From the NCBI GenBank assembly GCA_964475745.1, contig CAYYXO010000002.1, positions 11,679 to 75,678 of the forward strand: 64,000 bases of DNA, written 5' to 3'. Shown piece by piece: positions 3,032 through 62,423 of this stretch; position 1 is the stretch's first letter, and every line of letters starts with the position of its first letter. This stretch comes from an uncultured Candidatus Saccharibacteria bacterium. GTDB lineage: Bacteria > Patescibacteriota > Minisyncoccia > UBA6257 > JAKLIH01. The notes below the pieces were generated by a model. It was given only the letters and a program-made list of their open reading frames with translations, was not told the DNA's origin and did no database searches. The position numbers and the translations under genes were made by a program.

Positions 3032-3580
3032 ATGAAAAATATTAAAAGCTATCTTTTGGAATTGATTGAGGTAGTAGTGATCGCCTTGCTAATAGTTATT
3101 CCTATTAGAATGTATCTAGTCACACCTTTTTTTGTGAGAGGTCAAAGCATGCAACCAAGTTTTCAAGACGGAGATTATTTGATAATTGACAAACTAAGCT
3201 TTAGAATTTCTGATCCCGAGAGAGGCGATATAGTTGTATTTAAGGCCCCTTTAGAGCAAAGTAGTTTTTATATAAAAAGAATTGTTGGTTTGCCAAGCGA
3301 AACAGTGGAAATAAAAGATGGCGGGTTAATAGTTTATAATAGCGACAACACAGAAGGCTGAGAATTAAAAGAATCATATTTGGAAAATCATCCAAATACT
3401 CCTGGTAATATAAAAATAAAACTCCAGGCAGATGAATTTTTTGTTTTAGGAGACAACAGGGAGGCTTCTTATGATTCAAGAGAGTGAGGCAGTTTAAAGG
3501 CGGATAGAATAGTTGGAAAGGTTTGGTTGAGGTTGGCACCCATTAATAAGGTGCAAGCTTTTTCTTTGCCTAAATATTAA
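3032..3580 (+). CDS. lepB: signal peptidase I (182 aa, 2 in-frame TGA)
   Basis: N-terminal TM segment, the catalytic-Ser region RGQSMQPSF, and the GDNREASYDSRE-TGA-G box matching GDNRxxSxDSRxWG, where TGA sits on the conserved Trp. Confidence 0.8.
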
Positions 3581-22277: not shown

Positions 22278-22529
22278 ATAAAACAGTTAACTAATATTAA
22301 AAGTTCATATTCTTATGAATAAAAGAGATTCAAAAAACAGTTTAAAATTCAGGTGGTAAAAACACAGAGTTTTTCTTTGTGATTATACCGCTTGTCAAAA
22401 GCGGTTTTTTAATTCTCTAATAGTATTGGTTGATCTTTGAAAAAAGAATAAGGGTAAAATGTATTTTCATTGGAAAATTAAATAAAAAACTTAATTGAAG
22501 TTTCTTCAATGCTTTAATTAAGATGAGGA

Positions 22530-25590
<3,061 letters not shown>

Positions 25591-25637: not shown

Positions 25638-25746
25638 GGGCTGGTGATTAATTGTGATATGTCCCACTCGTTTCCATTTCGAACACGATAGTGAAAGTAT
25701 CATGACTCGATAATACTCGCAAGGGGAAAGTAGAGTTTGCCAGCCC
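25638..25746 (+). rRNA. rrf: 5S ribosomal RNA
   Basis: Helix I GGGCTGG/CCAGCCC and the conserved internal CCCACTCGTTTCCATTTCGAACACGATAGT. It sits directly after 23S. Confidence 0.8.
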
Positions 25747-25860: not shown

Positions 25861-27177
25861 ATGTCAAAAAGATTTTTTAAACAAATAGTTGCTTCGTTTT
25901 TATCTTTGCTAGTTTTAGTTATAGTAGGATTTGGTTTTTCAAGATTATTTAAATCCAAGCCAGTTGTTTTTGATCCAAGAAAAGCAGAGATAGCTTCTTT
26001 AAATACTTTCCAATTTGAAAGTAACGCTTTTTGAATGACTCAAGGAGATCGTTATTTTGTTTATAGCCGAGTAACAAATCCAAATGATAATTGAGGAGCA
26101 AAGAGTTTTGACTTTGTTTTTGATTTTGTTCAGAGACAAGAAGAGCTAGAAAGATCCGTTAGAAAGATTTCTGGTAGAGACTATATTTTACCAAGACAGA
26201 CAAAATATATTTTAGCCTTTGTTGAAACTGCCAATCTTTCTTTTGACAGCATAAATTTTCAAGTCAATGACAGAAATGTTGACTGAGACAAACCTATGAG
26301 TGAAGAATTTTTAAACCCAAATTTATTTAGTATAACCAACATAAATCTAGCAACAGGTACAGGTCAAATTATTGCTCCAAGAGAACAAGAAAGCACTTTG
26401 TTTTATGAATTTAAAAAAGATTTAAAAATGGGAGACAAGAACGAAGATGTTTTTAATTTGCAATCTGTTTTAGCTCAAGATAGAGAAGTTTATCCAGAAG
26501 GGCAGATTCATGGAAGTTTTGATTTAGCAACTTACAAGGCAGTCATTAGATTTCAACATAAAAATGGCATCCATCCCCAAACAGGCATAGTGGATTATAA
26601 AACCAGAGAGATTTTAAACCAAATGTTTGGTGGGTCAAGAAGCGAAGCAATCCAAAGAGGCGGCTTTTCCTTTGATAGCAATTTACAATTTGGAGATGCT
26701 GGCTCTGAAGTAAGAGAATTACAAAGAGTTTTAGCACAAGATCCAACAGTTTATCCAGAAGCAAGAATTACCGGCAATTTTGACTATTTATTAAAGCGAG
26801 CTTTAGAGCGTTTTCAAGAAAAACATTCTTTGCGAATAACAGGCGAATTTGACACACCAACAAGAACAAAATTAAATTCAATTTTAACTTCTCAAGATGG
26901 TGCAGCTGAAATAGCTCCTGGCTTGACGGCAGAATTATCCTTTACAGTTTTTAATAATTCCAATACATCTTTTAGAGAAGTTGCTTTGGTTGGCTTTTTA
27001 TGTGATACTCAAAATAAAGTAGTTGCTGTTTCAAGAAATACTATTCAATTAATGTCTCAAAGGAACCAAAATGTTTCTTTTTCTTGAGTTCATAATCTAG
27101 GCGAAAATGTAAAAGTTTGTCCAAATGGGTTGCAAGCCTATACAAATGTTTTCGATGTCAATAATATTATAAGATAA
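25861..27177 (+). CDS. secreted/membrane-anchored protein with two peptidoglycan-binding (PG_binding_1-like) repeats (about 438 aa, several in-frame TGA)
   Basis: N-terminal TM segment and two repeats of LQxVLAQDxxVYPEgxIxGxFD...FQxK..(I/L)xxTG. The 25861 and 26296 segments are in one frame. Confidence 0.55.
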
Positions 27178-27178
27178 A

Positions 27179-28270
27179 ATGATGGTTTATTTAGTTAAGA
27201 ATTGAAAAATATTTGTAAGTGTTTTTTTGTTGACAACATTAAGTTTGCTTATTTTAGCAAGTTTAAGCATGAATCCAGTTGATAATTTAGATGCCTTTTA
27301 TAGGCAGCTAGTTTTTTTTGTGATAGCAACAGTTTTTCTAATATTTTTTGCAAAATTTGATTATAATTTGCTTAAAAATCATTCTTTTTTTATCCTAGGA
27401 AATTATTTTTTATGAAATTTTTCTTTGATATTGTTGTTAGTTTTATCTCCAGTTACAAGAGGTACTAATCGTTGGTTTGATCTAGGTTTTTTCAGTTTAC
27501 AGCCAGTTGAGTTTGTAAAATTAGCTTTGATTTTAGTACTAGTGAAGTTTTTATATCGACGCAATTTAGAAATTTGAAATTTAAAAAATATTATAATCAG
27601 TGGAATATTTTTAGGCATACCTTCGGTTTTGGTTTTGCTGCAACCAGACTTGGGCCCAGTAGTGGCAATGTTTTTAATTTGATTAATTTTACTTTTGGTT
27701 TGTGGGCTGAGGTTCAAGCATTTATTAATTATGATAGTGTCGGTTTCGTTGGTGGCTATAGTTGGTTTTAATTTTATACTTCACGATTATCAAAAAAATC
27801 GTTTAATTTCTTTTTTAAATCCAAACTTAGATCCCATGGGCTTAAATTATAATCAACTTCAGTCAATGATAACCATAGGGAGTGGTCGTTTTTGAGGCAA
27901 AGGTTTGGGTTGAGGAACTCAAACTCAATTACAATATTTGCCAGAAACAAAAACAGATTTTATTTTTGCTGCCATTTCAGAAGAACTGGGGTTTTTAGGT
28001 GGCACCATTATTTTAGGAAGTTTTTTGTTAATGTTTAGTTATTTTGCAGATGCTTTAACTATAGCAAAAAATAATTTTAGCAAGCTTATTATCATTGGTT
28101 TTGGAGTGAAAATATTTTTAGAAACAGTTATAAATATAGGCGTAAATGTTGGGTTTTTGCCTGTTGTGGGCACAGCATTGCCTTTTATAAGTGCTGGAGG
28201 ATCTCATTTAATTGTAGATTTTATTATGGTCGGTATAATTTTAAATATTGTTAATGGACGTAATTACTAA
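27179..28270 (+). CDS. SEDS-family peptidoglycan glycosyltransferase (RodA/FtsW-like; about 363 aa, 5 in-frame TGA)
   Basis: GSGRF-TGA-GKGLG-TGA-GTQTQLQYLPETKTDFIFAAISEELGFLGG is the SEDS signature. The ORF-track segments 27227, 27695 and 27938 are in one frame with the ATG at 27179. Confidence 0.8.
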
Positions 28271-28272
28271 TT

Positions 28273-29274
28273 ATGAAAAAAATAATTTTTGCTTTTGGTT
28301 TGCTTTTTGTTTTTAGTTTCGTTTATTTAAGTATTAATAAAAAAACTACTTTAGAAGAAAAGTATTTCATTGTTGAACCTAGGCAATCTTTTTTATCAAT
28401 AATTGATGATTTGCATAGCGAAGGAATAATTAAAAATAGATATTTTTTCAAAGTTTTTGTTTTTTTGAGAGGAAGTCATAGGGATTTTAAACCAGGCGAA
28501 TATTATTTTAATGGCAGTTATTCAATGAAAAATATTTTAGAAGAGCTAAAAAACAACAAAGGTATATCAGTAACCATAGTTGAAGGCTATAATATTTATC
28601 AAATAGAAAAATTGCTTTTAAAAAATGAAATACTTTCATCAAAAGGAGAGCTAGTAGATTTTCTAGTCAAAGATGTGGATCTGAAAAAATATCCTTTTTT
28701 AAGATATGTTCCACCAGAAAATAATCTAGAAGGATTTCTATATCCTAATACCTATTATTTTTTAAAAAATACTAGCATAGAAAGAGTGGTAGAAAACTTT
28801 TTAGATCATTTTAATGAAAATATTTATATATTAGTTAAAGATAAAATAGCTTTAGACGAGTTTTATTATAAGCTTATAAAGGCTTCTTTCTTGGAAAAAG
28901 AAATATATCATAAAGAAGATATGCCTTTAGCATTAAGCGTAATAAATAACCGTCTTGATATTGGTATGAGGTTGCAAATAGATGCTACTTTATGTTACCC
29001 AAAATTTATGTTACAATATGAAAAAGACCAGGTTTTAAGATGCAATCAGGTTTTAGCAAGCGATAAGCAGATGACATCAGAATATAACACTTATAGATAC
29101 GCTGGCTTAACCAGAACGCCAATATCAAATGTTAATTTTGAAACCTTTAAAACTGTTTTAGAAGAAATTACTTCAGATTATTTCTATTATATAACAACTC
29201 CTCAAGAAAAAGATACTGTTTTTGGTAAAACATTAGAAGAGCATAATCGCAATATACAAAAATATTTAAGATAA
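28273..29274 (+). CDS. mltG: endolytic murein transglycosylase MltG (YceG-like)
   Basis: N-terminal TM segment and a YceG domain with GYNIYQIEKLL and PENNLEGFLYPNTYYF, matching LEGYLFPDTY. Confidence 0.75.
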   Translation: MKKIIFAFGLLFVFSFVYLSINKKTTLEEKYFIVEPRQSFLSIIDDLHSEGIIKNRYFFKVFVFLRGSHRDFKPGEYYFNGSYSMKNILEELKNNKGISVTIVEGYNIYQIEKLLLKNEILSSKGELVDFLVKDVDLKKYPFLRYVPPENNLEGFLYPNTYYFLKNTSIERVVENFLDHFNENIYILVKDKIALDEFYYKLIKASFLEKEIYHKEDMPLALSVINNRLDIGMRLQIDATLCYPKFMLQYEKDQVLRCNQVLASDKQMTSEYNTYRYAGLTRTPISNVNFETFKTVLEEITSDYFYYITTPQEKDTVFGKTLEEHNRNIQKYLR

Positions 29275-30005: not shown

Positions 30006-30152
30006 ATAAAAGCAATACTTCAGTAGGAAGTGTTCTTTTAAACTTGAAAATTTAGATATACCACAACTAACAAATTCAAAGTTTTTTAGTTGCTCTAAAG
30101 GTTTATTTTTTTTGAATAAATTTTGTATATTTTATATACAGTTGTTTTTTTT

Positions 30153-31672
<1,520 letters not shown>

Positions 31673-31799
31673 TTTTAGGAATCTTTGTTTAATTTGATTC
31701 GTCAAATTAAACTATTCCAAGGTCGTCCCGAATATTTTTTAAATATTTTGGAACTTGTTAAACTAAACCTGCTGGAGCAACTAAAAAGTTTTGAATCAA

Positions 31800-34606: not shown

Positions 34607-35317
34607 ATGGCAACAACAAAAAGGTATTTTTACTCAAATGAGTTTTATCATATTATTTTAAGAGGTATTGATGGAAAAACTTTGTTTTTAAACGACCAAG
34701 ACTATTTTAGAATGATCAATGGCATGTTTGTTTTTAATGATAAAGGGTTAATAGGTTCTTCTTTTCGACACAAAGGATGTCCAAATGATAGATTTGAAAG
34801 AAAAAGAAAAGGGCCTTTGGTAAATATACATGCTTTTTGCTTAATGCCAAATCACATTCATTTTTTGTTGGAACAAAAGGTTGAAGGGGGTCTGTCAAAA
34901 TTTATGTTAAAAATAGGAGCCGGCTATGCGGCTTTTTTTAATAATAAATATAAAAGAAAAGGCCATTTGTTTCAAAGCAGATTTAAGTCGGTTTTAATAA
35001 AAGATGATGATCAGTTGGCAGTAATTTTTTCTTATATCCATACAAATCCGGTTTCTATAATAGAACCTAATTGAAAGGAAAAGGGTATAAAAGATTTTAA
35101 AAAAGTTAGAAATTTTATTGAAACCTATAGGTGATCAAGTTATGCTGATTATTTAGGTAACAAAAATTTTCCAAATTTAACAAAAAGAAATTTTATGCTT
35201 CAAGATCAAAATCAACGCGCTTGAAGAAATTTCGTAGAAGACTGGCTAAAGTATAAGGCAGAGTTGTTTGAGCGTTTTTTTAAAGACAAAGGCAAAGATA
35301 GTTATTTATTGGAGTAA
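34607..35317 (+). CDS. IS200/IS605-family Y1 (HuH) transposase-like protein, RAYT/COG1943-like (about 236 aa, 3 in-frame TGA)
   Basis: HuH motif LMPNHIHFLL, the catalytic-Tyr region FSYIHTNPV, and C-terminal YR-TGA-SSYADY matching the WSSY box. It uses TGA for Trp, so it is host-adapted. No tnpB is adjacent. Confidence 0.7.
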
Positions 35318-35539: not shown

Positions 35540-35790
35540 ATTAAATATGTCAACACCATGCTTAGCGAGTTAAATTTCAAAGCCCATCATGGTGTTGGCC
35601 ATCATTTCAGCTTAATCAATTACAACGTAGCAAGGCAACGTTGTATATTCTCCTTTGATTAATCAGGCCTAACGCTACCTGGTAACGGAGGGAGGGAGTG
35701 GTTTGTGGGGATATTTGGTGGTTGTTTTATATTACGTAGCGGGAGGGGATCTTGGTGTTATTTTAAATTATGCAATGCGAGTGGTTGTAT
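35540..35790. other. GC-richer structured non-coding element with inverted repeats and G-tracts
   Basis: Inverted repeats caacaccatg...catggtgttg (35551..35596) and tacaacgt...acgttgta (about 35618..35645). A G-tract cluster follows: GGAGGGAGGGAGTGG..GTGGGG...GCGGGAGGGG (35690..35745). It contains no ORF. Confidence 0.35.
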
Positions 35791-35841
35791 AAATGATATA
35801 AATATGCTAAAATTGATTTAAATAGCTTAATTGTATTATTT

Positions 35842-36783
35842 ATGAATGATATATCAAAAAAAAAGGAAGAGTTTCTTTTAAAAATTATGAGTTCAACAAA
35901 CGCTGATAAATTTAAAAGATATTTAGGAAGCCCATTGCGATATGCAGGAGGTAAAACATTGGCTGTCGGGTATATTGTAAAATTGTTGCCTAATAAAATA
36001 GATAGAGTTGTTTCGCCTTTTTTAGGGGGGGCTTCAGTTGAAATTGCCTTGGCAAAAGAGCTGGGACTTGAAGTTATCGGGTATGACATTTTTGACCTAC
36101 TGATAAATTATTGGAAGAACCAAATTAATAATCCTGAGCAGCTGTATCAGAATTTAAGAATATTGGCAAACACAAAAAATAAATATCAAGAGGTAAAAAA
36201 TATTTTAAAAAATATATGAAATAAAAATGATGGCCTGTTGAAAAATGATTTTTCTAGTTTAGAATTGGCAACTTATTATTATTTTAATCATAACTTAAGC
36301 TATGGACCTGGATTTTTGGGATGGATGTCGTCAAATTATTTAGATAATAAAAAATATGATTCAATGTTGAAAAAAGTTAAGAATTTTAAGGTTTGTAATT
36401 TTCATGTTCGTACATCAAGTTTTGAAGAAGCAATCCCGATGCATAAAAAAGATTTTTTATATTTGGACCCGCCTTATTATTTAGACGGAGACAGTAAAAT
36501 GTTTAAAGGGATATATCCAATGAGAAATTTTCCAATACATCACAATGGCTTCAACCACGAATTATTATTTAATTTGTTAAAAAATCATGATGGCGGTTTT
36601 ATTTTGTCATATAATGATTGCGAATGGGTAAGAAAAAAATATAAAAATTTTAAAATTATAGATATTGAATGGCAATATACAATGGGACAAGGGGAGACAA
36701 GAATAGGTAAAAACAGATTGTCAAGAAATTATGACAATAACAATGTAAAAAAATCTCATGAATTATTAATTATAAATTATTAA
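35842..36783 (+). CDS. Dam-family (D12-class) N6-adenine DNA methyltransferase (about 313 aa, 1 in-frame TGA)
   Basis: N-terminal SAM motif LRYAGGKTL (a Dam motif I-like FxGxG/YAGGK) and the catalytic motif IV LYLDPPYY (DPPY). The 35842 and 36238 segments are in one frame across the TGA at 36217. Confidence 0.8.
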
Positions 36784-50707: not shown

Positions 50708-50773
50708 CAATTGACATTATTTTAATAATTTTATACAATATAGTTAGATGAAAAAATAAATTAACAAATTTTT

Positions 50774-52960
50774 ATGAAAAAAATTCTTATTGTTTTGACT
50801 TTATTATTGCTTGTGTTTAAAATTGCCTTATCGGCTAGCAATGAATTTTGTATTACGGGCAAAATTATTGGTATGAGCACAAGCGCACAAACGATTGTAG
50901 TTGAGCCAGAAATTTCTTTAACAACAAGGGTGGTTAGTTTTTTAAAAAATATTTTTAATCGACAGTCATCTGTTGCTCCGACTCAATATGTTTTTGAGCT
51001 AACAAAAACAACTCAATTATTAGATGATAAAAAAAATCTTATTACTTTAGACAATGTTTCTATTGGTGATAGGGTCACTGCTTGTGGCATTGTGATGGAA
51101 GAAGATGAAGACTATAATATATTACAAGCAAGATCTGTGGCTATTCAAAAGCAACGAGGTTCTTTAATTGCTGAATGAGTAAGTACTTTAGTTGATATTG
51201 GACAAAGAAGAGAATTTAATGTTACAGAAAGAGGAGGCGTTGATGTTGGCGTAGGATTATGGCCGATAACTTCCATGACCAACTGTGTTTTTGAAGGCGA
51301 GCCTGTTTTGATAAATCCTTTGCTTGATCCAAAAGGTGAAAAAGTAAAGCCATGTTGTGATGGTCTGATTTTATGTAAATCAGAAGAAGGCACAGTTACA
51401 AAGCTAGGAGTTAATTATATTATTGCGGGAGTTTGTATGAGAAATTGTGAAGATCCAATTAATGCAAATGATGCTGACAAATTTAAAATTTATTCTCCCT
51501 GAGAGCTTTTAAAAAATCAAATGGCAAAATTTCAAGAGTCTGATAAAATTTCTTTACCAAAAGAAAAAAATCTTTTAACTTTACCTCCCCAATGTCTAAC
51601 GGATGATGATTGTTTTCCTTTTCCAGATGATTTTGATATTGATGGGATGAGGATCATAAAGCCTAATTCTATGTTTCAAAGTATAGGAAATATTCCAGAA
51701 GGATGATTGCCTGTTTGCAGAAAAGGGGTTTGCGTTTGAGAGATAGCATATCCTCAGCCAAGAGTGGATGACTTTGAAAGAGAGATTTATTGAGCTGGAT
51801 ATTGTTCAAAAGATGATGAATGTGTTTTTGATGGTAACAGTTGTGTTTTAAGAAGCAATGCTTATTCTGGATTAGGTTTTTTTGCAGAGATGTTTATAGA
51901 TAAAAATAAATCAGCAGATTGTGTTTGTAGAAATAATGCTTGTGTTAGTTTAAGTGGAATGGGATTGGGATTGCCAGGAAGAGGATTGATTGATTGTGGC
52001 AAAGAGGTGGTTGAGGTTTGTGGAGAAGATAATAAAACTTATCTAAACCCATGTTTTGCTATACAAGCAGGTGTTAATATTAAACATTATGGCAAATGTA
52101 TGTCAGACGCTGGGAAAAAACCCGATACAGGTATGATACCATTTCCAGATGACGACCCAATGATGTGTAAAAGTAATTTTGAATGTGCGTGGTGTAATAA
52201 TGGTTGTTTTACCAGAGAAATGATATCCCAAAGCAATATGAAATGCGATCCAAATAAAAAAATTCCTCAAGGCATGACTTGTCTTTGCTTAAGAAGTGGA
52301 ATGTGTGAGCTTAGGTCACAAGGTGATTTAGGCGGAGCTGTGCCACCAGCAACTTCACCAGAAAGAAGGCATGTGCCCGATAATGTTTGCCTAGCAGATA
52401 AAGATTGTGTTTTTTGTGGACAAGAATGTTTAACCACAATAGTTGTTGACCAGATGATTTCTATGGGCAGATCTTGTAGAGTTGATTTACAACCAGCAAA
52501 TGCAAAATGTGTTTGCAGGCAAAGCAATTGTTCAATTGAATATCAACAAGTACCTCAACCAGAACCGCCAAAAAGTGAAAACGGGCAAATTAACCCAAGA
52601 GAATCAAATATATTAGGTTTTTGTGGTATAGAGACAGGAGGGTATTGTAGTAATGATGCAGATTGTAAAGTAGGAGGATGTTCTGGGCAAGTGTGTCAAT
52701 CAAGAACAGAAGTGGATATGATTACTATATGCGATTGAAAAGATTGTTATCAAAAACAAGGTGTTTATTGTGGATGTGTTTCAAATAAATGCATGTGGTA
52801 TCAATCGGGAAGTCAAAATCTACCTCAGCCTCCAGAGAGCAGTTTTCCTGAGATAGGTTTTCCTCATATTGACAATCAAATAAATGTCAATTACCATGAT
52901 CAGAATATGTTTCAGCATAATAATGATTTATGGCAATCGCCAACATACATTACTTATTAA
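50774..52960 (+). CDS. large secreted cysteine-rich protein with a Kazal-like motif and repeated C-x2-D-x-(D/E)-C modules (about 728 aa, about 8 in-frame TGA)
   Basis: Signal peptide MKKILIVLTLLLLVFKIALSA. ORF-track segments 50774, 51275, 51521 and 51890 are all in one frame and interrupted only by TGA. It contains VCGEDNKTYLNPCFAIQAGVNIKHYGKC (Kazal VCGxDxxTYxNxC...GxC) plus CLTDDDCFPFPDD, CSKDDECVF, CKSNFECAWCNNGC, CLADKDCVFCGQEC, CSNDADCKVGGCSGQVCQ and CDWKDCYQKQGVYCGCVSNKC. Confidence 0.55.
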
Positions 52961-52968
52961 AAATTTAA

Positions 52969-53001
52969 AACTAGCGAAAAGCAAAGCTTTTCGCTAGTTT
53001 A
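52969..53001 (+). terminator. rho-independent terminator
   Basis: Hairpin actagcgaaaag-caaa-gcttttcgctagt followed by TT. Confidence 0.6.
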
Positions 53002-53051: not shown

Positions 53052-54113
53052 ATGGATATCAACCAGTTTGATTATAAGCTACCAAAAAAATTAATTAGCC
53101 AGAAGCTAACTTTGCCAAGAGATCGGTGTAATTTTTTAATATATAATAGCGAAAAAAGGGAGAGCTATTTTAAAAAGTTTTACCATGTTTTGGATTATCT
53201 GGGAAAAGATGATGTAGTGGTGCTAAATGACACCAAGGTTTTTCCAGCTAGACTAGAAGGAGAAAAAACAACAGGAGGAAAGATAGAAGTTTTTTTGATA
53301 AAACCTATAGATGGTAATTTTCAAAAAAAAGTAAAAAATAAATGAGAAATTTTAGTAAATAAAAAAGTAGAAGATAGTCAAGAGATTTTATTTAAGAAAA
53401 AAAATAAAATAGTACTAAAGGGCATAATTAAAAAAGACCAAAGTCTTTTGATGGGGTTTAATTTGAAGGGAGAGGCTTTGTGAAAAGCAATTTATGATTT
53501 AGGAAATATGCCTTTGCCTCCATATATCAAGAGTCAAAAAGATCAAAAACACTACCAAACTATTTATGCTAAGAAGGTGGGTTCATGTGCTGCCCCAACA
53601 GCAGGGTTTCATTTTACAGAAAATTTAATTGAGAAATTATTAAAAAAAGGAGTCAAAATAGAATATATTACTTTAAATGTTGGGCTAGGGACTTTTAAGC
53701 CAATAAGAGTGGATGACATAAAGAAGCATAAAATGGATACAGAATATTTAAAAGTAGAAAAAGATGTTGCTAAGAGGTTAACAAATTATAAAAAGCAAGG
53801 AAAGAGAATTATAGCTGTGGGCACAACAGTAGTAAGAACCCTGGAGTCAGTTTTTAAAAAAGGTGTTTTTTGCGATGATGTTTTGCAAACAAATATTTTT
53901 ATTTATCCAGGCTATAAGTTTAAAGTAGTGGATGCGTTTATTACTAATTTTCATTTGCCACGATCAACTCCTTTAATGATGACAGCTGGTTTTTTAATGC
54001 AAAAGCATGGTGATTTTGAAACAGCTAAAAAAGAATTATTTAAAATTTATAACTCAGCGGTAGCTAAAAAATATAAGTTCTATAGCTTTGGAGATGCTAT
54101 GATGATAATATAA
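53052..54113 (+). CDS. queA: S-adenosylmethionine:tRNA ribosyltransferase-isomerase (about 353 aa, 2 in-frame TGA)
   Basis: N-terminal FDYKLPKKLISQKLT..RDRCNFLIY matches the QueA DFDFELPEELIAQ start. GNMPLPPYIK and HFTENL are present. Confidence 0.85.
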
Positions 54114-54127
54114 ACTAAGACAAAAGT

Positions 54128-55267
54128 ATGGAAAAATTTAAAATAAAATATCAGTCAAAAAAAACAAAAGCAAGAATTGGCCAGCTTAAAACAGAACACG
54201 GGAGTATTGAAACGCCAGTTTTTATGCCACCAGCCACGAGAGGTTTTTTAAAAAGTGTGGATAGCATAGATGTAGTTAAAAATTTAAAAAACCAGATGCT
54301 TTTAGTAAATACTTATCATTTGTATTTGAGGCCAGGAGACCAATTTGTGAAGAAATTTGGAGGTATTCATAAGTTTATGGGTTTTGATAAGCCTATTTTG
54401 AGTGATTCAGGCGGGTTTCAAGTTTGAAGTTTAAATAAAAAAGGTGAAAAATTGGCAAAAATATCAGAAGAGGGAGTTAGTTTTAAATCAAATATTGATG
54501 GCTCTAAACATATGTTTACTCCAGAAAAATCAATTGAAATACAACATAATCTAGGAGTAGATATTTTAATGGCTTTTGATGAATGTACTAATGATAAAAA
54601 TTCAAAAGAGCAGGTCGTAAAGGTATTAGAAAGAACTAATCGATGATTAGCTAGATCCGTTGAGCAGCATCAAAGGTTGCAAAAGAAAAACAAATCAAAT
54701 AAATTACTTTTTGGTATTGCCCAAGGTGGAGTGCATTTGGATTTGAGAAAACAAGCCTTGGAGTTTGTTAACAACACAGAAGTAGATGGAGTGGCTCTAG
54801 GCGGAGAAACTATTGGCTATAATATGAAAAAAACAAAGGAGTTGTTGAAAAATTTGGAAGGTTGTTTAGATCTAAAAAGGCCAATTTATACTATGGGCTT
54901 AGGCGGTAATATCCAGGACATGATTGATGCCATGGTCAGAGGAGTGGATATGTTTGATTGTGTGAATCCTGCAAGACTGGCTCGTCATGGTGAAATGTTT
55001 ATTGGTAAGCTTGATTTAAAAACATTTAAAGTCAAATCATCAGAAAAAGGTAATGTTTTAAAAATTGGATTGAGTAAATACCAAAATGACAAAAAGCCAG
55101 TAGAAAGCAATTGCGATTGCTTGGTGTGCCAAAATTATTCAAGGGCATATTTGAGGTATCTGTATATGATAAAAGAACCGCTATATTTTAGATTAGCCAC
55201 GATTCACAATATTTATTATGTGAATAAGATAATAAATCAATTTAAAGATTTTGTAAAAAATGAATAA
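54128..55267 (+). CDS. tgt: queuine tRNA-ribosyltransferase (about 379 aa, 2 in-frame TGA)
   Basis: [25 protein letters not shown] and the zinc site [17 protein letters not shown]. Confidence 0.88.
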
Positions 55268-55796
55268 AAAACTTTTGCTATACACTTGTTGTGCTTCATG
55301 CGCTTTGCCAATATTGGATTATTTAAAAAATCAAAATTTTGACATTACTCTTTATTTTTCAAATTCAAATATTTTGGATAAAGATGAATTTGATAAGAGG
55401 CTATCAGATGTTGAAAAAATTGCTAAAATTTATAATGTTGAAGTTGTGATTGATGAATATAATCATCAAGAATGACTCGATTGCTTGAGTAAAAATTTAC
55501 CAAAAGATTTAAAAGAATATCAAGAAAATTCTGAAAGATGTGTTGCATGCTTAAATTTTAGAACTCAAAGGTTGGCAAAATATCTTCTGAGTAATGTTTT
55601 TGATGTTGTTTCCAGTACTTTTTTGACTAGTTTGCATAAAGATACGAAAAAAGTCGAAAACTGATTAAAAGAATTTGGAGGGGAAGTTTTGTTTTTTGAT
55701 ATTGATAAAAAAGATTTTTATAAGAAGGGAATTGATTTGTCCAAAAAGCATGATATTTATAGACAAAAGTTTTGTGGTTGTGAATTTTCGAGATAA
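55260..55796 (+). CDS. queH: epoxyqueuosine reductase QueH (DUF208; about 178 aa, 2 in-frame TGA)
   Basis: LLLYTCCASCALP matches the QueH LLLHSCCAPCS box, and C-terminal YRQKFCGCEFS matches YRQ.YCGC. It overlaps the tgt stop by 8 nt. Confidence 0.7.
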
Positions 55797-56838: not shown

Positions 56839-57600
56839 ATGAAAAATTTTAAATTTTATTTAGCAGGGTCTTTAGTGATTCTCTTTCTGCTGTTTTTTCA
56901 ATTTGTGTTTGTGGTTTTAAAAGAAGCCACTATTTTGGATAGAGCTCAAAAAGAATGAGATCCTTCTAATATAGAATTAAGGGATTTGGGCTTTACCTCT
57001 GATAGGTTCGTAAAAGATAAAAATATCAGAAAAGAAGTAATTAAATACAACAACAAGAAATTTTTAGTGGTTTTTATGGGCAACGAACAGTCATATTTTG
57101 ATAGAAAGATAGTTGCCAATATGTTTGTTTATGGCCCCGACATTTCAGGAAAAACAGTTTTAAAAGATTTTCAATCTTTTACCTTGACTCCAAAAGAAGA
57201 ACCATTTTTTAAAGATAATTTACCAGAATTGCCTTTTGTGGAAAAAGTGGTTGATATAAATGGAGATGGTGTTCCAGAAATATTAGTTAATCTAGGAAAT
57301 TACCCAGGTCTCGGAGCTCGCTATACAGTGGTTTCTTATGATTTGATAAGAGAAGATTTAAAATGACTTCGAGTTCAAGATAAAAATGGTATTATTGATC
57401 AAGCTTGATTCTTTGAAGGGTATTTTGATGATGCTATCCTTAGATTTGAAATAGATGAAAAAGAAAGTTCCGTCTATCAGTTTATTGGGGTTATGCCAAG
57501 AGATATTAGCGAGGAAGAAAGCTTAGATTTAAATAATTGAAACTGAAGAGTGGATATTTTTACTTTAGCAAGGGAGGGCGGCTTGTTTATTCAAAAATAA
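56839..57600 (+). CDS. hypothetical exported protein (about 253 aa, several in-frame TGA)
   Basis: N-terminal TM/signal segment. The 56839 ATG is in frame with the 56986 ORF across TGA. Confidence 0.4.
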
Positions 57601-57602
57601 TT

Positions 57603-58466
57603 ATGGTTAAAAAAATATATGTTATAAATAACTCTGGAGAGAGGGAGTTGTTATCTAAAAATAAAATAATAAATAGTGCCAAAAGAAGTGGTGCTAGTTT
57701 GGATTTGGCTAAAAAAGTTGCTGACATTGTAACAGAAAAAGTTGACGAAGAAATGACCACAAGGAAAATTTATGCATTGATTAAAAAAACTTTATTAAAA
57801 GAAAGTCCGGCAAGCGGCATGAAGTATTCTTTAAAAGAAGCCATAAGAAAGTTGGGGCCAACAGGACATTGATTTGAAAAATATGTAGCTGATATTTTAA
57901 AGGAGTATGGCTACAAAACTAAAATTAATCAGATAGTAAAAGGCCGTTGTGCTGATTTTGAAGTTGATGTTTTGTTGTGAAAAGATGAAATAAAAGAATT
58001 TTCTTTTGGCGAATGTAAATATCATAACAATCCTGGAGCTAAAGTTTCTATTTCAACTATTTTAGAAAACTTTGCTAGCTTTATTGATTTAAAAGATGGC
58101 AAATTGGGGCAATCTTTTGTTGACAAAAAGTATAATTTAAAAAGAGCCATCATTACAAATACAAAGTTTACCTCAAAAGCTATTACTTATGCTAATTGTT
58201 ACGGAGTAACTCTCTTGGGTTGAAAATATCCAAAAGGAAGGGGTTTAGAATACTATATTGATGGCAAGAATCTTTATCCAGTAACTATTTTGCCTTCTGT
58301 GACTTCATTAATGCTCGAAGAGCTTTATAATAAAAATGTTTTATTAGTGAAGGAATTATTAGATGAAAATGTTCAGAAAAAACTTAAAAAAAGTTCTTTG
58401 CCAAATGTAAATGTTGACAAGATAGTTAAAGAGGCAAAAATACTTTTTAAAGAAGAAGGGTTTTAA
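57603..58466 (+). CDS. ATP-cone domain fused to a restriction-endonuclease-like (Mrr/PD-(D/E)xK-like) domain (about 287 aa, 4 in-frame TGA)
   Basis: N-terminal YVINNSGERELLSKNKIINSAKRSGASLDLAKKVADIVTEK.. is the same ATP-cone pattern as the NrdD N-terminus. The following domain has CADFEVDVLL-TGA-KDE...FGECKYH, fitting a D...ExK nuclease core. Confidence 0.55.
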
Positions 58467-61202: not shown

Positions 61203-62423
61203 TTAAAAATCCGAGAAATCATCATAAACTTTGGCATGGATGTTTTTATTGATGTCTCCGTTGGTAAATAATTTTGTGTCTTTTTTGTTGGTGGTTTTAA
61301 CAATTTTTACTTTGTTTTTTACTTTTTTACATGTTTCTATTTGTTTTCTGGTGTCTTCTGGTATTTCTCTCATAATATCATTAAAAGATTCTTTATCTAT
61401 TTTGATTAAACCATTTCATTTGTCTAGTGGTTGCAAAATTTCTTTGATCTTTTTTCATTCATAAGTGTAGATTTCTTTGTCATTGATTTCAAAACAACCC
61501 TCATCACTTTCAAGTTTGAAGAGTTTTTTTTGAACAAGAAAGTTGTCTATTTGGCATTTGATTTTGTCAATCTCTTTTTCTAAAATTCTTTTTTTGTCAT
61601 GAAGAGTAAAATATTTGTTGATTAAATGCTTAGTACTTTGTTCGTCTTTAGGGATCTCTTTTTGTTGGTAGTTTCTAAAAGCAGGACAAATATTTTTAAA
61701 ACCACATCAATTGCATAAAATAGTTGGTTTTGGCGGAAAAATCTTTTCTTTTTCTATGTCTTTTATAGTTTTGATTATTTGGTATTTGGTTTTTTCTAAA
61801 TCATCAATATTTCGTTTGGTTTTTAGATGTTCTTGGTGGCGCAGAAAATACAAAGAAAGATCTAGCTTATCTAATTCAATTTTGGGTCATTTATTAATGA
61901 CAGCCATTGCATATATGGAAAGCTGGTTGTTGTCGTCAACATTTTTTTGAGTTGGGAGTCTTTTGCCAGTTTTGTAATCAACAATTTCATAGTGATTGTT
62001 TATTTTACTAATGCGGTCAATAATGCCAGAAACAATATGCAGATTATTGTTGGGCTCCTTTATTTCTAGTTCAAAAGGAGATTCAAGACCCAAAACAGTA
62101 AGTTTATCAAAATGATTGTTCTGGTAAAAGCCTTTAAGCATCATTATGCCTTCGTCAAAATTAAAGCCATTTAAATTTTTTTCTTTATTGCTTTTTAAGT
62201 CAAAATATTTGATTTCACCAAAATGAGCTTCATAAAAGGAAAGCAGATCTTTTAAAGATATTTTTTTTGGGTCATTTTCAAAGAATCATTGTAAAACGTA
62301 ATGCAAATAAGTGCCAAAAACAGCTGCTTCTGATTTTGGCTCAATTAACTTGTCTATTTTGCCCAACTTGTATTTATGGGGGCATTGTTTGAATGTTTCT
62401 AAAGAAGAATGTGAAACGCGCAT
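61203..62423 (-). CDS. Cas4-like/RecB-family PD-(D/E)xK nuclease with a 4Fe-4S cysteine pattern (about 406 aa, about 6 in-frame TGA)
   Basis: Minus-strand frame rejoined across TGA. N-terminal QCPHKYKL supplies the first Cys. The nuclease core is GIIDRISKINNHYEIVDYKTGK...QLSIYAMAV. The C-terminal CNWCGFKNICP supplies CxxCx5C. Only the 85-aa piece at 61887..62144 is visible in the ORF track. Confidence 0.65.

Follow-up and report, generated by a model that had tools for sequence, protein, structure and literature searches.

A cysteine-rich, predicted secreted mosaic protein with a non-classical Kazal domain, encoded with UGA as tryptophan in a Patescibacteria-like genome

The 64,000-nucleotide (nt) stretch of an uncultured Candidatus Saccharibacteria bacterium analysed here (hereafter the window) carries, at 50774-52960 on the plus strand, one gene for a 728-residue cysteine-rich protein. 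We propose, with a probability of about 0.55, that the product is a secreted, fast-evolving mosaic protein of a cell-walled, Patescibacteria-like bacterium with a small genome, the Kazal domain of which blocks foreign serine proteases. The identities of its domains and its extracellular, disulfide-bonded, modular nature are well supported; secretion itself, disulfide formation, inhibitory activity and its target, as well as any role in host interaction, are what we infer beyond this. Little is known of how ultrasmall, host-dependent bacteria protect themselves and hold their partner cells, and this gene offers a concrete and testable candidate, with a 38-residue Kazal domain bearing a predicted P1 lysine, a fixed locus, divergence two to three times faster than that of its neighbours, and a variable number of domains.

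The frame spans 2187 nt, i.e., 729 codons counting the TAA stop, and starts at the ATG at 50774, the earliest start downstream of in-frame TAA/TAG stops. Under translation table 11, the only stops inside it are six TGA codons, at nt 51176, 51500, 51704, 51737, 51791, and 52736 (codons 135, 243, 311, 322, 340, and 655), and the chance of 728 codons free of TAA or TAG is ~6e-22 at the base composition of the window. Table 11 breaks the gene into four open reading frames (ORFs) of at least 60 amino acids (aa), with lengths of 134, 75, 61, and 282 aa, plus a piece of 55 aa and two short ones. These four ORFs are the fragments that an earlier sequence-only reading of this DNA had joined into a single gene across TGA codons, and the joining was correct, as there is one 728-codon ORF with TGA-only interruptions. 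The same reading had counted more than 50 cysteines, which was slightly too many: there are 48, or 6.6% of the protein compared to 0.86% in 41 other genes of the window. The motifs it quoted are all in place, namely VCGEDNKTYLNPC...HYGKC at aa 415-442, CSNDADCKVGGCSGQVCQ at aa 625-642, CLADKDCVFCGQEC at aa 539-552, and CKSNFECAWCNNGC at aa 465-478. The protein sequence with TGA translated as Trp is also on record at NCBI (P0001), from a 94,415-bp contig and in a singleton cluster.

Alignments and codon statistics show that TGA encodes Trp in this gene and across the window. TGA lies in frame in most genes of the 64-kb window, which holds 104 TGA and 49 TGG among 15,880 codons, with genes closed by TAA (36) or TAG (6). 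One TGA of Tgt lines up with the conserved Trp in ERSMRW of the Zymomonas enzyme, and the Trp content is 0.96% under code 4 versus 0.31% under code 25. At codon 655, the matching column in 126 relatives of the eight-cysteine-cluster domain (see below) holds W in 71, Y in 37, F in 13, M in 4, and V in 1, with G in none. Moreover, a TGA of the orthologue on contig L001 aligns with a TGG-encoded Trp of the window protein, within EC[AL]WCN. A Gly version of the protein is not on record at NCBI, unlike the Trp version. Translation of TGA as Gly (code 25) is thus ruled out by the Tgt alignment, the Trp content, the 0 of 126 Gly at codon 655, and the Trp version at NCBI. In alignments of NrdD and PolA to Protein Data Bank (PDB) entries, the TGA sites fall in poorly aligned stretches or one residue past the alignment shown, and no tRNA-Trp(UCA) is encoded in the 64-kb window. 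The first report of UGA read as Trp in the Patescibacteriota is a May 2026 preprint, on the class Minisyncoccia.

The gene and the successive parts of its product are as follows.

50774-52960, plus strand: coding sequence for 728 aa, closed by TAA and including six in-frame TGA=Trp codons.
50774-50839, plus strand: predicted signal peptide, aa 1-22, MKKILIVLTLLLLVFKIALSAS, assigned by eye from the sequence.
50840-51157, plus strand: OB-like beta-barrel domain, aa 23-128, with a lineage-specific Cys26/Cys104 pair; predicted local distance difference test (pLDDT) ~90 or more.
51275-51457, plus strand: family-specific 6-Cys domain, aa 168-228, C-V-x-E-G-E-P ... CC ... C ... G-x-x-Y-I-x-x-G-x-C-x3-C; pLDDT ~70-80.
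51584-51748, plus strand: Cys module M1, aa 271-325, with four Cys (C274, C280, C315, and C320).
51794-51952, plus strand: Cys module M2, aa 341-393, with six Cys; pLDDT 83-91 in places.
51989-52102, plus strand: Kazal-type domain, aa 406-443, Kazal_1 21.5 bits; pLDDT 92-95.
52157-52315, plus strand: 8-Cys module M3, aa 462-514, C-x5-C-x2-C-x3-C-x12-C-x11-C-x-C-x5-C; pLDDT 92-96.
52379-52546, plus strand: 8-Cys module M4, aa 536-591, with the Cys framework of M3; pLDDT ~80.
52616-52804, plus strand: eight-cysteine-cluster (eight-Cys) domain, aa 615-677, with 10 Cys and the TGA=Trp codon 655 inside.
52805-52957, plus strand: Cys-free C-terminal tail, aa 678-728; pLDDT <50.

The full-length AlphaFold2 (AF2) model, built from a 70-row alignment, has a mean pLDDT of 68 and a predicted template modelling (TM) score (pTM) of 0.30, with a sharply bimodal profile. 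Confidence is high for the OB-like barrel (aa 23-125), a hairpin of M1 (311-324), the Kazal domain (406-444), M3 (463-515), and the eight-Cys domain (608-680), high in places for M2 (343-392), ~80 for M4 (539-592), and moderate for the 6-Cys domain (~171-225), while the linkers and the last 45 residues are predicted to be disordered (pLDDT <50). The model shows a beads-on-a-string protein in which small rigid domains are carried on flexible linkers; the compact Cys-rich modules suggested from the sequence alone are recovered by AF2 at high confidence. The architecture is new, built from known kinds of domain together with uncharacterised disulfide modules.

At the N-terminus, MKKILIVLTLLLLVFKIALSAS reads by eye like a signal peptide, having its charged, hydrophobic, and small-residue parts, in agreement with the putative signal peptide called earlier; AF2 places a helix at aa 2-20, and a signal peptide is common to all orthologues. 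The model of the domain that follows matches the copper chaperone CusF and other OB folds in a Foldseek search of the PDB (E-value 2e-3, TM-score 0.69), with no Pfam match to its sequence. Likewise without a Pfam match, the 6-Cys domain is kept in all orthologues and duplicated in some. For M1, confident prediction is limited to the C-terminal hairpin (aa 311-324). A common framework, C-x5-C-x2-C-x3-C-x(12-15)-C-x(10-11)-C-x-C-x(4-5)-C, underlies M3 and M4; it is kept in orthologues and recurs in the unrelated protein P0126; neither module has sequence relatives in the PDB. Searches of the excised modules against Pfam and NCBIfam at E-values up to 10 returned no TIL, antistasin, EB, or other match beyond the Kazal and eight-Cys domains. 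Derivation of M3 and M4 from the eight-Cys domain as divergent copies was not supported, at an hhalign probability of 2.4% with only the terminal C-x-C-x4-C hairpin aligning, and hhalign gave no support for all five Cys modules being such copies.

Profile, sequence, and model comparisons identify aa 406-443 as a genuine Kazal domain, one of the non-classical group with two disulfides. Pfam Kazal_1 (PF00050) passes its cut-off of 21 bits at aa 407-442 (21.5 bits), and phmmer against PDB sequences matches many solved Kazal inhibitors at E-values of 2.4e-7 to 1e-3, including ovomucoid (2.4e-7), GmSPI-2 (1.5e-6, gapless over 36 residues), and the leech tryptase inhibitor LDTI (1.6e-5). The predicted secondary structure within the confidently modelled segment (aa 406-444, pLDDT 92-95) comprises strands at 415-417 and 436-439 and a helix at 426-431. 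In Foldseek the domain model overlays GmSPI-2 (4hgu) at a root-mean-square deviation of 1.0 Å over 36 residues, a TM-score of 0.80, and 47% identity, and it also matches 1ppf_I (OMTKY3). The core motif reads C408-GKEVVEV-C416-G-E-D-N-K-T-Y423-L-N425-P-C427, with Tyr423 and the spacer Asn425 retained. The Kazal motif that the sequence-only reading had picked out thus holds at the level of the family profile, of the PDB matches, and of the model.

Classical Kazal domains have six Cys in three disulfides (I-V, II-IV, and III-VI); this one has four only, C408, C416, C427, and C442, which correspond to Cys II, III, IV, and VI, with Cys I and V absent. Being devoid of the I-V bridge, it belongs to a non-classical subgroup that still lies within the family, and its predicted pairs are Cys408-Cys427 (II-IV) and Cys416-Cys442 (III-VI). 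GmSPI-2, which likewise has four Cys in two disulfides, potently inhibits subtilisin and proteinase K, seven residues separating its first two Cys and P1 lying two residues past the first Cys; CrSPI-1-D1, another active non-classical inhibitor, also has only two disulfides (PMC4169406). Application of the GmSPI-2 spacing rule to C408-x7-C416 identifies Lys410, in the loop C-G-K-E, as the predicted P1 by position, followed by a P1' Glu as in ovomucoids. With GmSPI-2 (PDB 4hgu/2m5x; MEROPS I1), the domain shares a C-x7-C-G-x-D-x-K-T-Y-x-N-x-C-x14-C core of 36-38 residues with four Cys, and with LDTI it shares a P1 Lys, since the Lys of the LDTI C-P-K-I loop aligns with Lys410. Differences from these inhibitors are also apparent: GmSPI-2 is a free 36-aa animal inhibitor, whereas here the domain is one bead of a 728-aa bacterial mosaic; P2 is Gly, and inhibition is predicted; and some Kazal copies of the family (paralogous and orthologous) carry a different extra Cys pair, C-x4-C-x-C, at the end.

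Among orthologues, P1 is K, D, D, S, or N on a conserved VCGxDGKTYxNPCEA scaffold. Variation at P1 on a conserved scaffold is a known pattern of Kazal inhibitors. A search of the accessible literature found no relevant work on Kazal domains in the candidate phyla radiation (CPR) or in other bacteria. The four-Cys form C-x7-C-x10-C-x14-C also occurs in tandem in a prokaryotic-looking metagenomic protein (P0006, a Beta_helix/NosD protein with five Kazal repeats); an equally close multi-Kazal match, P0008, is eukaryotic. An unrelated protein, P0016, contains two Kazal-like domains and a C-terminal eight-Cys domain. P0006 and P0016 both have the four-Cys Kazal form, with no homology to the window protein outside the shared domains, and of the two P0016 combines Kazal-like domains with a terminal eight-Cys domain as the window protein does. 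The OB-like domain, the 6-Cys "CVxEGEP" domain, and M1-M4 are restricted to the syntenic family and absent from P0006 and P0016.

The eight-Cys domain matches NCBIfam TIGR04289 (heavy_Cys) with 52.3 bits against a cut-off of 50, over aa 625-675 and model positions 2-52 of 52, and a PF27854.1 (Heavy_Cys_CGP) match is precomputed for the exact protein (P0001). Its 10 Cys lie in FCG-x-ST-x-G-x-C-x2-D-x-DC-x2-GGCSGQVCQS ... TTCEW[RK][DE]CY ... C-x-C-x4-CQW. All invariant columns of a 121-sequence alignment (F, C, G, the 10 Cys, and G) are present, as are the signature residues FCG, GGCSG, C-E/D-W-x-x-C-Y, C-x-C, and C-x-W, and the TGA=Trp codon 655 supplies the aromatic after the sixth Cys. Modelled alone from the 121 sequences, the domain reaches a pLDDT of 90.4 and a pTM of 0.79; its profile has no match among PDB sequences, and the family has no solved structure. 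The heavy_Cys_CGP family anchored by CGP-CTERM (TIGR04292) is matched through the shared domain only, at 37.3 bits versus a cut-off of 200, and the C-terminus, ...LWQSPTYITY, has neither Cys-Gly-Pro nor a transmembrane (TM) segment.

A word-index search with the protein or with the family alignment recovered only the protein itself and its own fragment; the family was reached by an exhaustive search of 1.84 billion representatives, which gave 964 matches at E-values of 1e-3 or below. Of the top 151, examined for the domain, 126 contain it, and in ~100 of these it lies within 10 residues of the C-terminus. A profile search gathered 277 proteins, mostly of ~100 aa, from Pacearchaeota, Woesearchaeota, Micrarchaeota, Aenigmatarchaeota, Nanoarchaeia, Archaeoglobus, Pyrobaculum, Thermodesulfovibrionales, Nitrospiraceae, and Deltaproteobacteria; genome loci add Patescibacteria (as a metagenome-assembled genome [MAG]), Myxococcales, and Lujinxingia as carriers. 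Most members have an N-terminal hydrophobic leader followed by a lipobox-like "GC," with the domain at the C-terminus. This leader and the recurring C-terminal placement hint at a common extracellular role. The one clue to function in the literature comes from Thermococcus barophilus, in which a protein with this domain annotation has been found in culture supernatant (PMC10667668). With such proteins (e.g., T. barophilus TERMP_01543), the window protein has in common all invariant residues and a predicted extracytoplasmic setting. Two differences stand out: typical members end with the domain, whereas here ~590 residues of modules precede it and a 51-residue tail follows, and the Thermococcales members are CGP-CTERM anchored, whereas the window protein has no CGP-CTERM. 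At one Pacearchaeota locus the neighbours (a cation ATPase, an Na/Ca exchanger, and RuBisCO) give no functional clue. A widespread, uncharacterised domain gains, through the present gene, a context suggestive of an extracellular function. The domain also stands C-terminal to DUF333-like domains (P0023 and P0048, by eye), to an M3/M4-type module (P0126), and to Kazal-like domains (P0016).

Seven other contigs (L001, L018, L019, L021, L022 and L023 with the same protein, and L024) carry orthologues, each contig having 28-35% GC and TGA codons in frame; among the MAGs of the genome collection, the closest one with an orthologue bears the label "uncultured Candidatus Saccharibacteria bacterium." The locus order is PolA, histidine kinase, a small EF-Tu_D2-like protein, Trp/Tyr permease, the Cys-rich gene, QueA, Tgt, and QueH, and each contig keeps the part of it that it covers, with L001 having a different upstream gene. 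Identity to the window is 25-37% for the Cys-rich protein and 50-85% for its neighbours (two Tgt matches being at 38-40%). The closest orthologue conserves 46 of the 48 Cys at 37% non-Cys identity; the only Cys missing from L001 are C26 and C104, which are absent together. Domain number varies, with one to three Kazal copies and one or two 6-Cys domains per orthologue, an additional 6-Cys module at the C-terminus of L001 and L018, in the place of the Cys-free tail of the window protein, and loss of the eight-Cys domain in L019. These sequence comparisons show a conserved genomic position and fast divergence with a retained Cys framework. That the Cys form disulfides rather than persist as free thiols is supported by their even number (48), by the conservation of 46 of the 48, and by the loss of C26/C104 as a pair.

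The tail itself (...NVNYHDQNMFQHNNDLWQSPTYITY, 52805-52957) takes the place of an orthologue module, ICxxVMxCxxGxxxxADCGExGNKCYxF...C.C (L001 3144-3401 and the L018 C-terminus), all six Cys of which have been lost together. It keeps "FQH.ND" where the module has "QFHDLGND," so that it may be a decayed remnant of the 6-Cys module.

In the mechanism that we favour, removal of the signal peptide would leave a string consisting of the OB-like barrel, the 6-Cys domain, two Cys modules, the Kazal domain, two 8-Cys modules, and the eight-Cys domain. The Kazal domain would bind extracellular serine proteases tightly and inhibit them in the canonical, substrate-like (Laskowski-type) manner, presenting Lys410 as P1 on a loop held by Cys408-Cys427, Cys416-Cys442, and Asn425. 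The cell surface, or the zone of contact with a partner cell, would thus be protected from foreign trypsin-like or subtilisin-like proteases, with the disulfide-rich modules serving as protease-resistant spacers or as binding modules.

Several points weigh against this proposal. (i) The Kazal_1 score is borderline, and Kazal_2 (PF07648) scores 21.6 bits, below its cut-off of 22.8. (ii) P2 is Gly, and P1 is Asp, Ser, or Asn in several orthologues. These three are poor P1 residues for common serine proteases, so the domain could be a binding module rather than an inhibitor. (iii) There is no candidate target protease near the gene; an S41 C-terminal processing peptidase, not known to be targeted by Kazal domains, is the only protease seen in the window. 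(iv) No disulfide-forming enzyme was identified in the 64-kb window. (v) Most of the protein, i.e., the OB-like domain, the 6-Cys domain, M1-M4, and the eight-Cys domain, is without assignable function, and the last of these has no fold relatives in the PDB, Foldseek returning only Dickkopf at an E-value of 8.9. (vi) The phylum is assigned from gene content and from the NCBI label of one MAG with an orthologue, rather than from a phylogeny. The inhibitory role is, overall, a prediction that we draw from sequence and model.

The main rival explanation, which we regard as possible though tentative, is that the protein is an adhesin or structural surface fibre, with a rigid, protease-resistant stalk whose Kazal, OB-like, and eight-Cys domains would attach to ligands on the cells of a host or partner or on the bacterium's own wall; the Kazal domain would then be a non-inhibitory binding module, as in the Kazal-like domains of the follistatin/agrin type. 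The beads-on-a-string model, the rapid divergence and module shuffling at a fixed locus, and the Asp, Ser, and Asn P1 residues of orthologues, atypical for strong inhibitors, would all be accounted for. So would the N-terminal OB fold, as OB folds often bind oligosaccharides or other ligands, and the eight-Cys domain, which is usually C-terminal on diverse N-terminal "passengers" and common in episymbiotic DPANN and CPR organisms. Yet the protein displays no recognised anchor (no C-terminal TM segment, LPXTG, CGP-CTERM, or lipobox, and a TIGR04292 score of 37 versus 200), and the reactive-loop geometry, P1' Glu, and spacer Asn of inhibitory Kazal domains are all retained. Fast divergence, variation in domain number, and P1 variability fit a surface protein engaged in molecular conflict, and an adhesin no less; neither role precludes the other, and both can coexist.

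In a more elaborate scenario, which we consider rather unlikely, the family would give UGA=Trp Patescibacteria a hypervariable "shield and grapple" at their surface: the Kazal domains would neutralise serine proteases of hosts or competitors, and the eight-Cys domain, with its fold not represented in the PDB, would be a general module for cell-surface recognition that serves episymbiotic attachment and is common to CPR bacteria and DPANN archaea. Were this true, the 6-Cys and 8-Cys modules of the family would also represent new disulfide-rich folds.

The sequence-only reading had also described the protein as made of eukaryote-style modules, which may be stood by for the 38-residue Kazal domain at most, the other Cys modules being prokaryotic, or particular to this family or to comparable metagenomic proteins. 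In particular, the C-x2-D-x-(D/E)-C modules are not of that style, having no TIL, antistasin, or EB match in Pfam or NCBIfam, and the C-terminal one is the prokaryotic Heavy_Cys_CGP domain. An origin of the Kazal domain and other modules from eukaryotes by horizontal transfer is thus improbable in our estimation. In its favour, the best matches of solved structure are animal inhibitors (ovomucoid, GmSPI-2, and LDTI), and the closest multi-Kazal matches include P0008, the product of a eukaryotic gene that has a gene range of 833 kb and RasGEF/Ank neighbours. The PDB matches lean to animals, however, because animal Kazal domains are those that have been solved; the domain accounts for only 38 of 728 residues, and the other recognisable parts are prokaryotic (Heavy_Cys_CGP) or family-specific. 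The four-Cys form stands in tandem in the prokaryotic-looking P0006 and is paired with an eight-Cys domain in the unrelated P0016. Furthermore, the gene is native to its genome in codon usage, in GC content, and in its in-frame TGA=Trp, and its slot is conserved in eight contigs, so that any transfer would be ancient. A eukaryotic origin is neither needed nor shown.

We give very little credence to a metal-binding or redox role of the Cys (in metallothionein-like, Fe-S, or zinc-ribbon-like modules) in place of structural disulfides. The very high Cys density, the C-x2-C and C-x-C spacings, the copper chaperone CusF as nearest fold match of the N-terminal domain (E-value 2e-3), and an eight-Cys domain without known function could be read in this manner. 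Against this, the predicted signal peptide would direct the protein outside the cell, the Cys pairs of Kazal domains are known disulfides (PMC4169406), the Cys are even in number and are gained or lost in pairs, no His or Met clusters of the CusF-site kind are visible by eye in the sequence, and AF2 folds the domains confidently without ligands. Finally, the notion of separate small genes or a decayed pseudogene with TGA codons as stops, suggested by the table 11 fragments that some databases list as proteins in their own right (P0003, P0002, P0004, and P0014), is effectively refuted by the reading of TGA as Trp throughout the window, by domains that span TGA codons (the eight-Cys domain needing an aromatic at codon 655), by orthologues that retain a single continuous frame with TGA at differing positions, and by the 6e-22 chance probability of the open frame.

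The flanks of the gene carry two features.

50711-50739, plus strand: promoter-like site, TTGACA-17 nt-TACAAT, ~35 nt 5' of the start codon, a consensus match only.
52968-53000, no strand assigned: hairpin with a 15-bp stem directly 3' of the stop codon, a likely transcription terminator.

The former agrees with the consensus at 11 of 12 positions and is the top match in the region. The scan placed the hairpin on the minus strand; its stem is palindromic, and TTTATT comes next on the plus strand. From the promoter-like site and the putative terminator, the gene would appear to form its own transcription unit. Just beyond lies a queuosine cluster, QueA-Tgt-QueH (53052-55796, with Tgt at 54128-55267), which is syntenic in L001, L018, L019, and L022-L024; these tRNA-modification genes are present with no queuosine-precursor synthesis genes visible in the window.

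The window has a GC content of ~30% and includes genes for a PG_binding_1 protein (25861-27177), FtsW/RodA (27179-28270), and MltG (28273-29274), as well as for ComEC, the S41 protease, an MscS channel, a histidine kinase, and QueA-Tgt-QueH. FtsW/RodA, MltG, and the peptidoglycan-binding protein rule out a mycoplasma-type organism; the presence of peptidoglycan and cell-division genes instead indicates a cell-walled, CPR-like genome. A signal peptidase I was assigned by eye from the sequence at 3032-3580. The rRNA genes are unlinked and in an unusual order on the same strand, with 23S at 22522-25582, 5S at 25640-25745, and 16S at 30151-31676, and with four protein genes (for the peptidoglycan-binding protein, FtsW/RodA, MltG, and RecR) between 5S and 16S. 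Strand bias is extreme, nearly all long ORFs being on the plus strand, and GC skew is positive in every 2-kb bin (+0.15 to +0.36), which suggests a position of the entire window within one replichore, on the leading strand. A PD-(D/E)XK/Cas4-like nuclease (61203-62423) is the product of the only clear gene on the minus strand. It is one of several genes of mobile or defence type; the others encode an IS200-like Y1 transposase (34607-35317), a D12-class N6-adenine methyltransferase (35770-36783), and an ATP-cone plus Mrr_cat restriction-endonuclease-like protein (57537-58466).

Public collections already store table 11 fragments of the Cys-rich family as "hypothetical proteins" (P0002, P0003, P0004, and P0014), and two of these, P0002 and P0004, stop precisely where the eight-Cys domain has its TGA=Trp codon. 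Neighbouring genes are split likewise in public calls, Tgt into four pieces and QueH into two, with the L018 and L019 gene calls among the examples. Code 4 genomes that are read with table 11 would thus have such proteins broken into the "hypothetical" fragments that already fill public databases.

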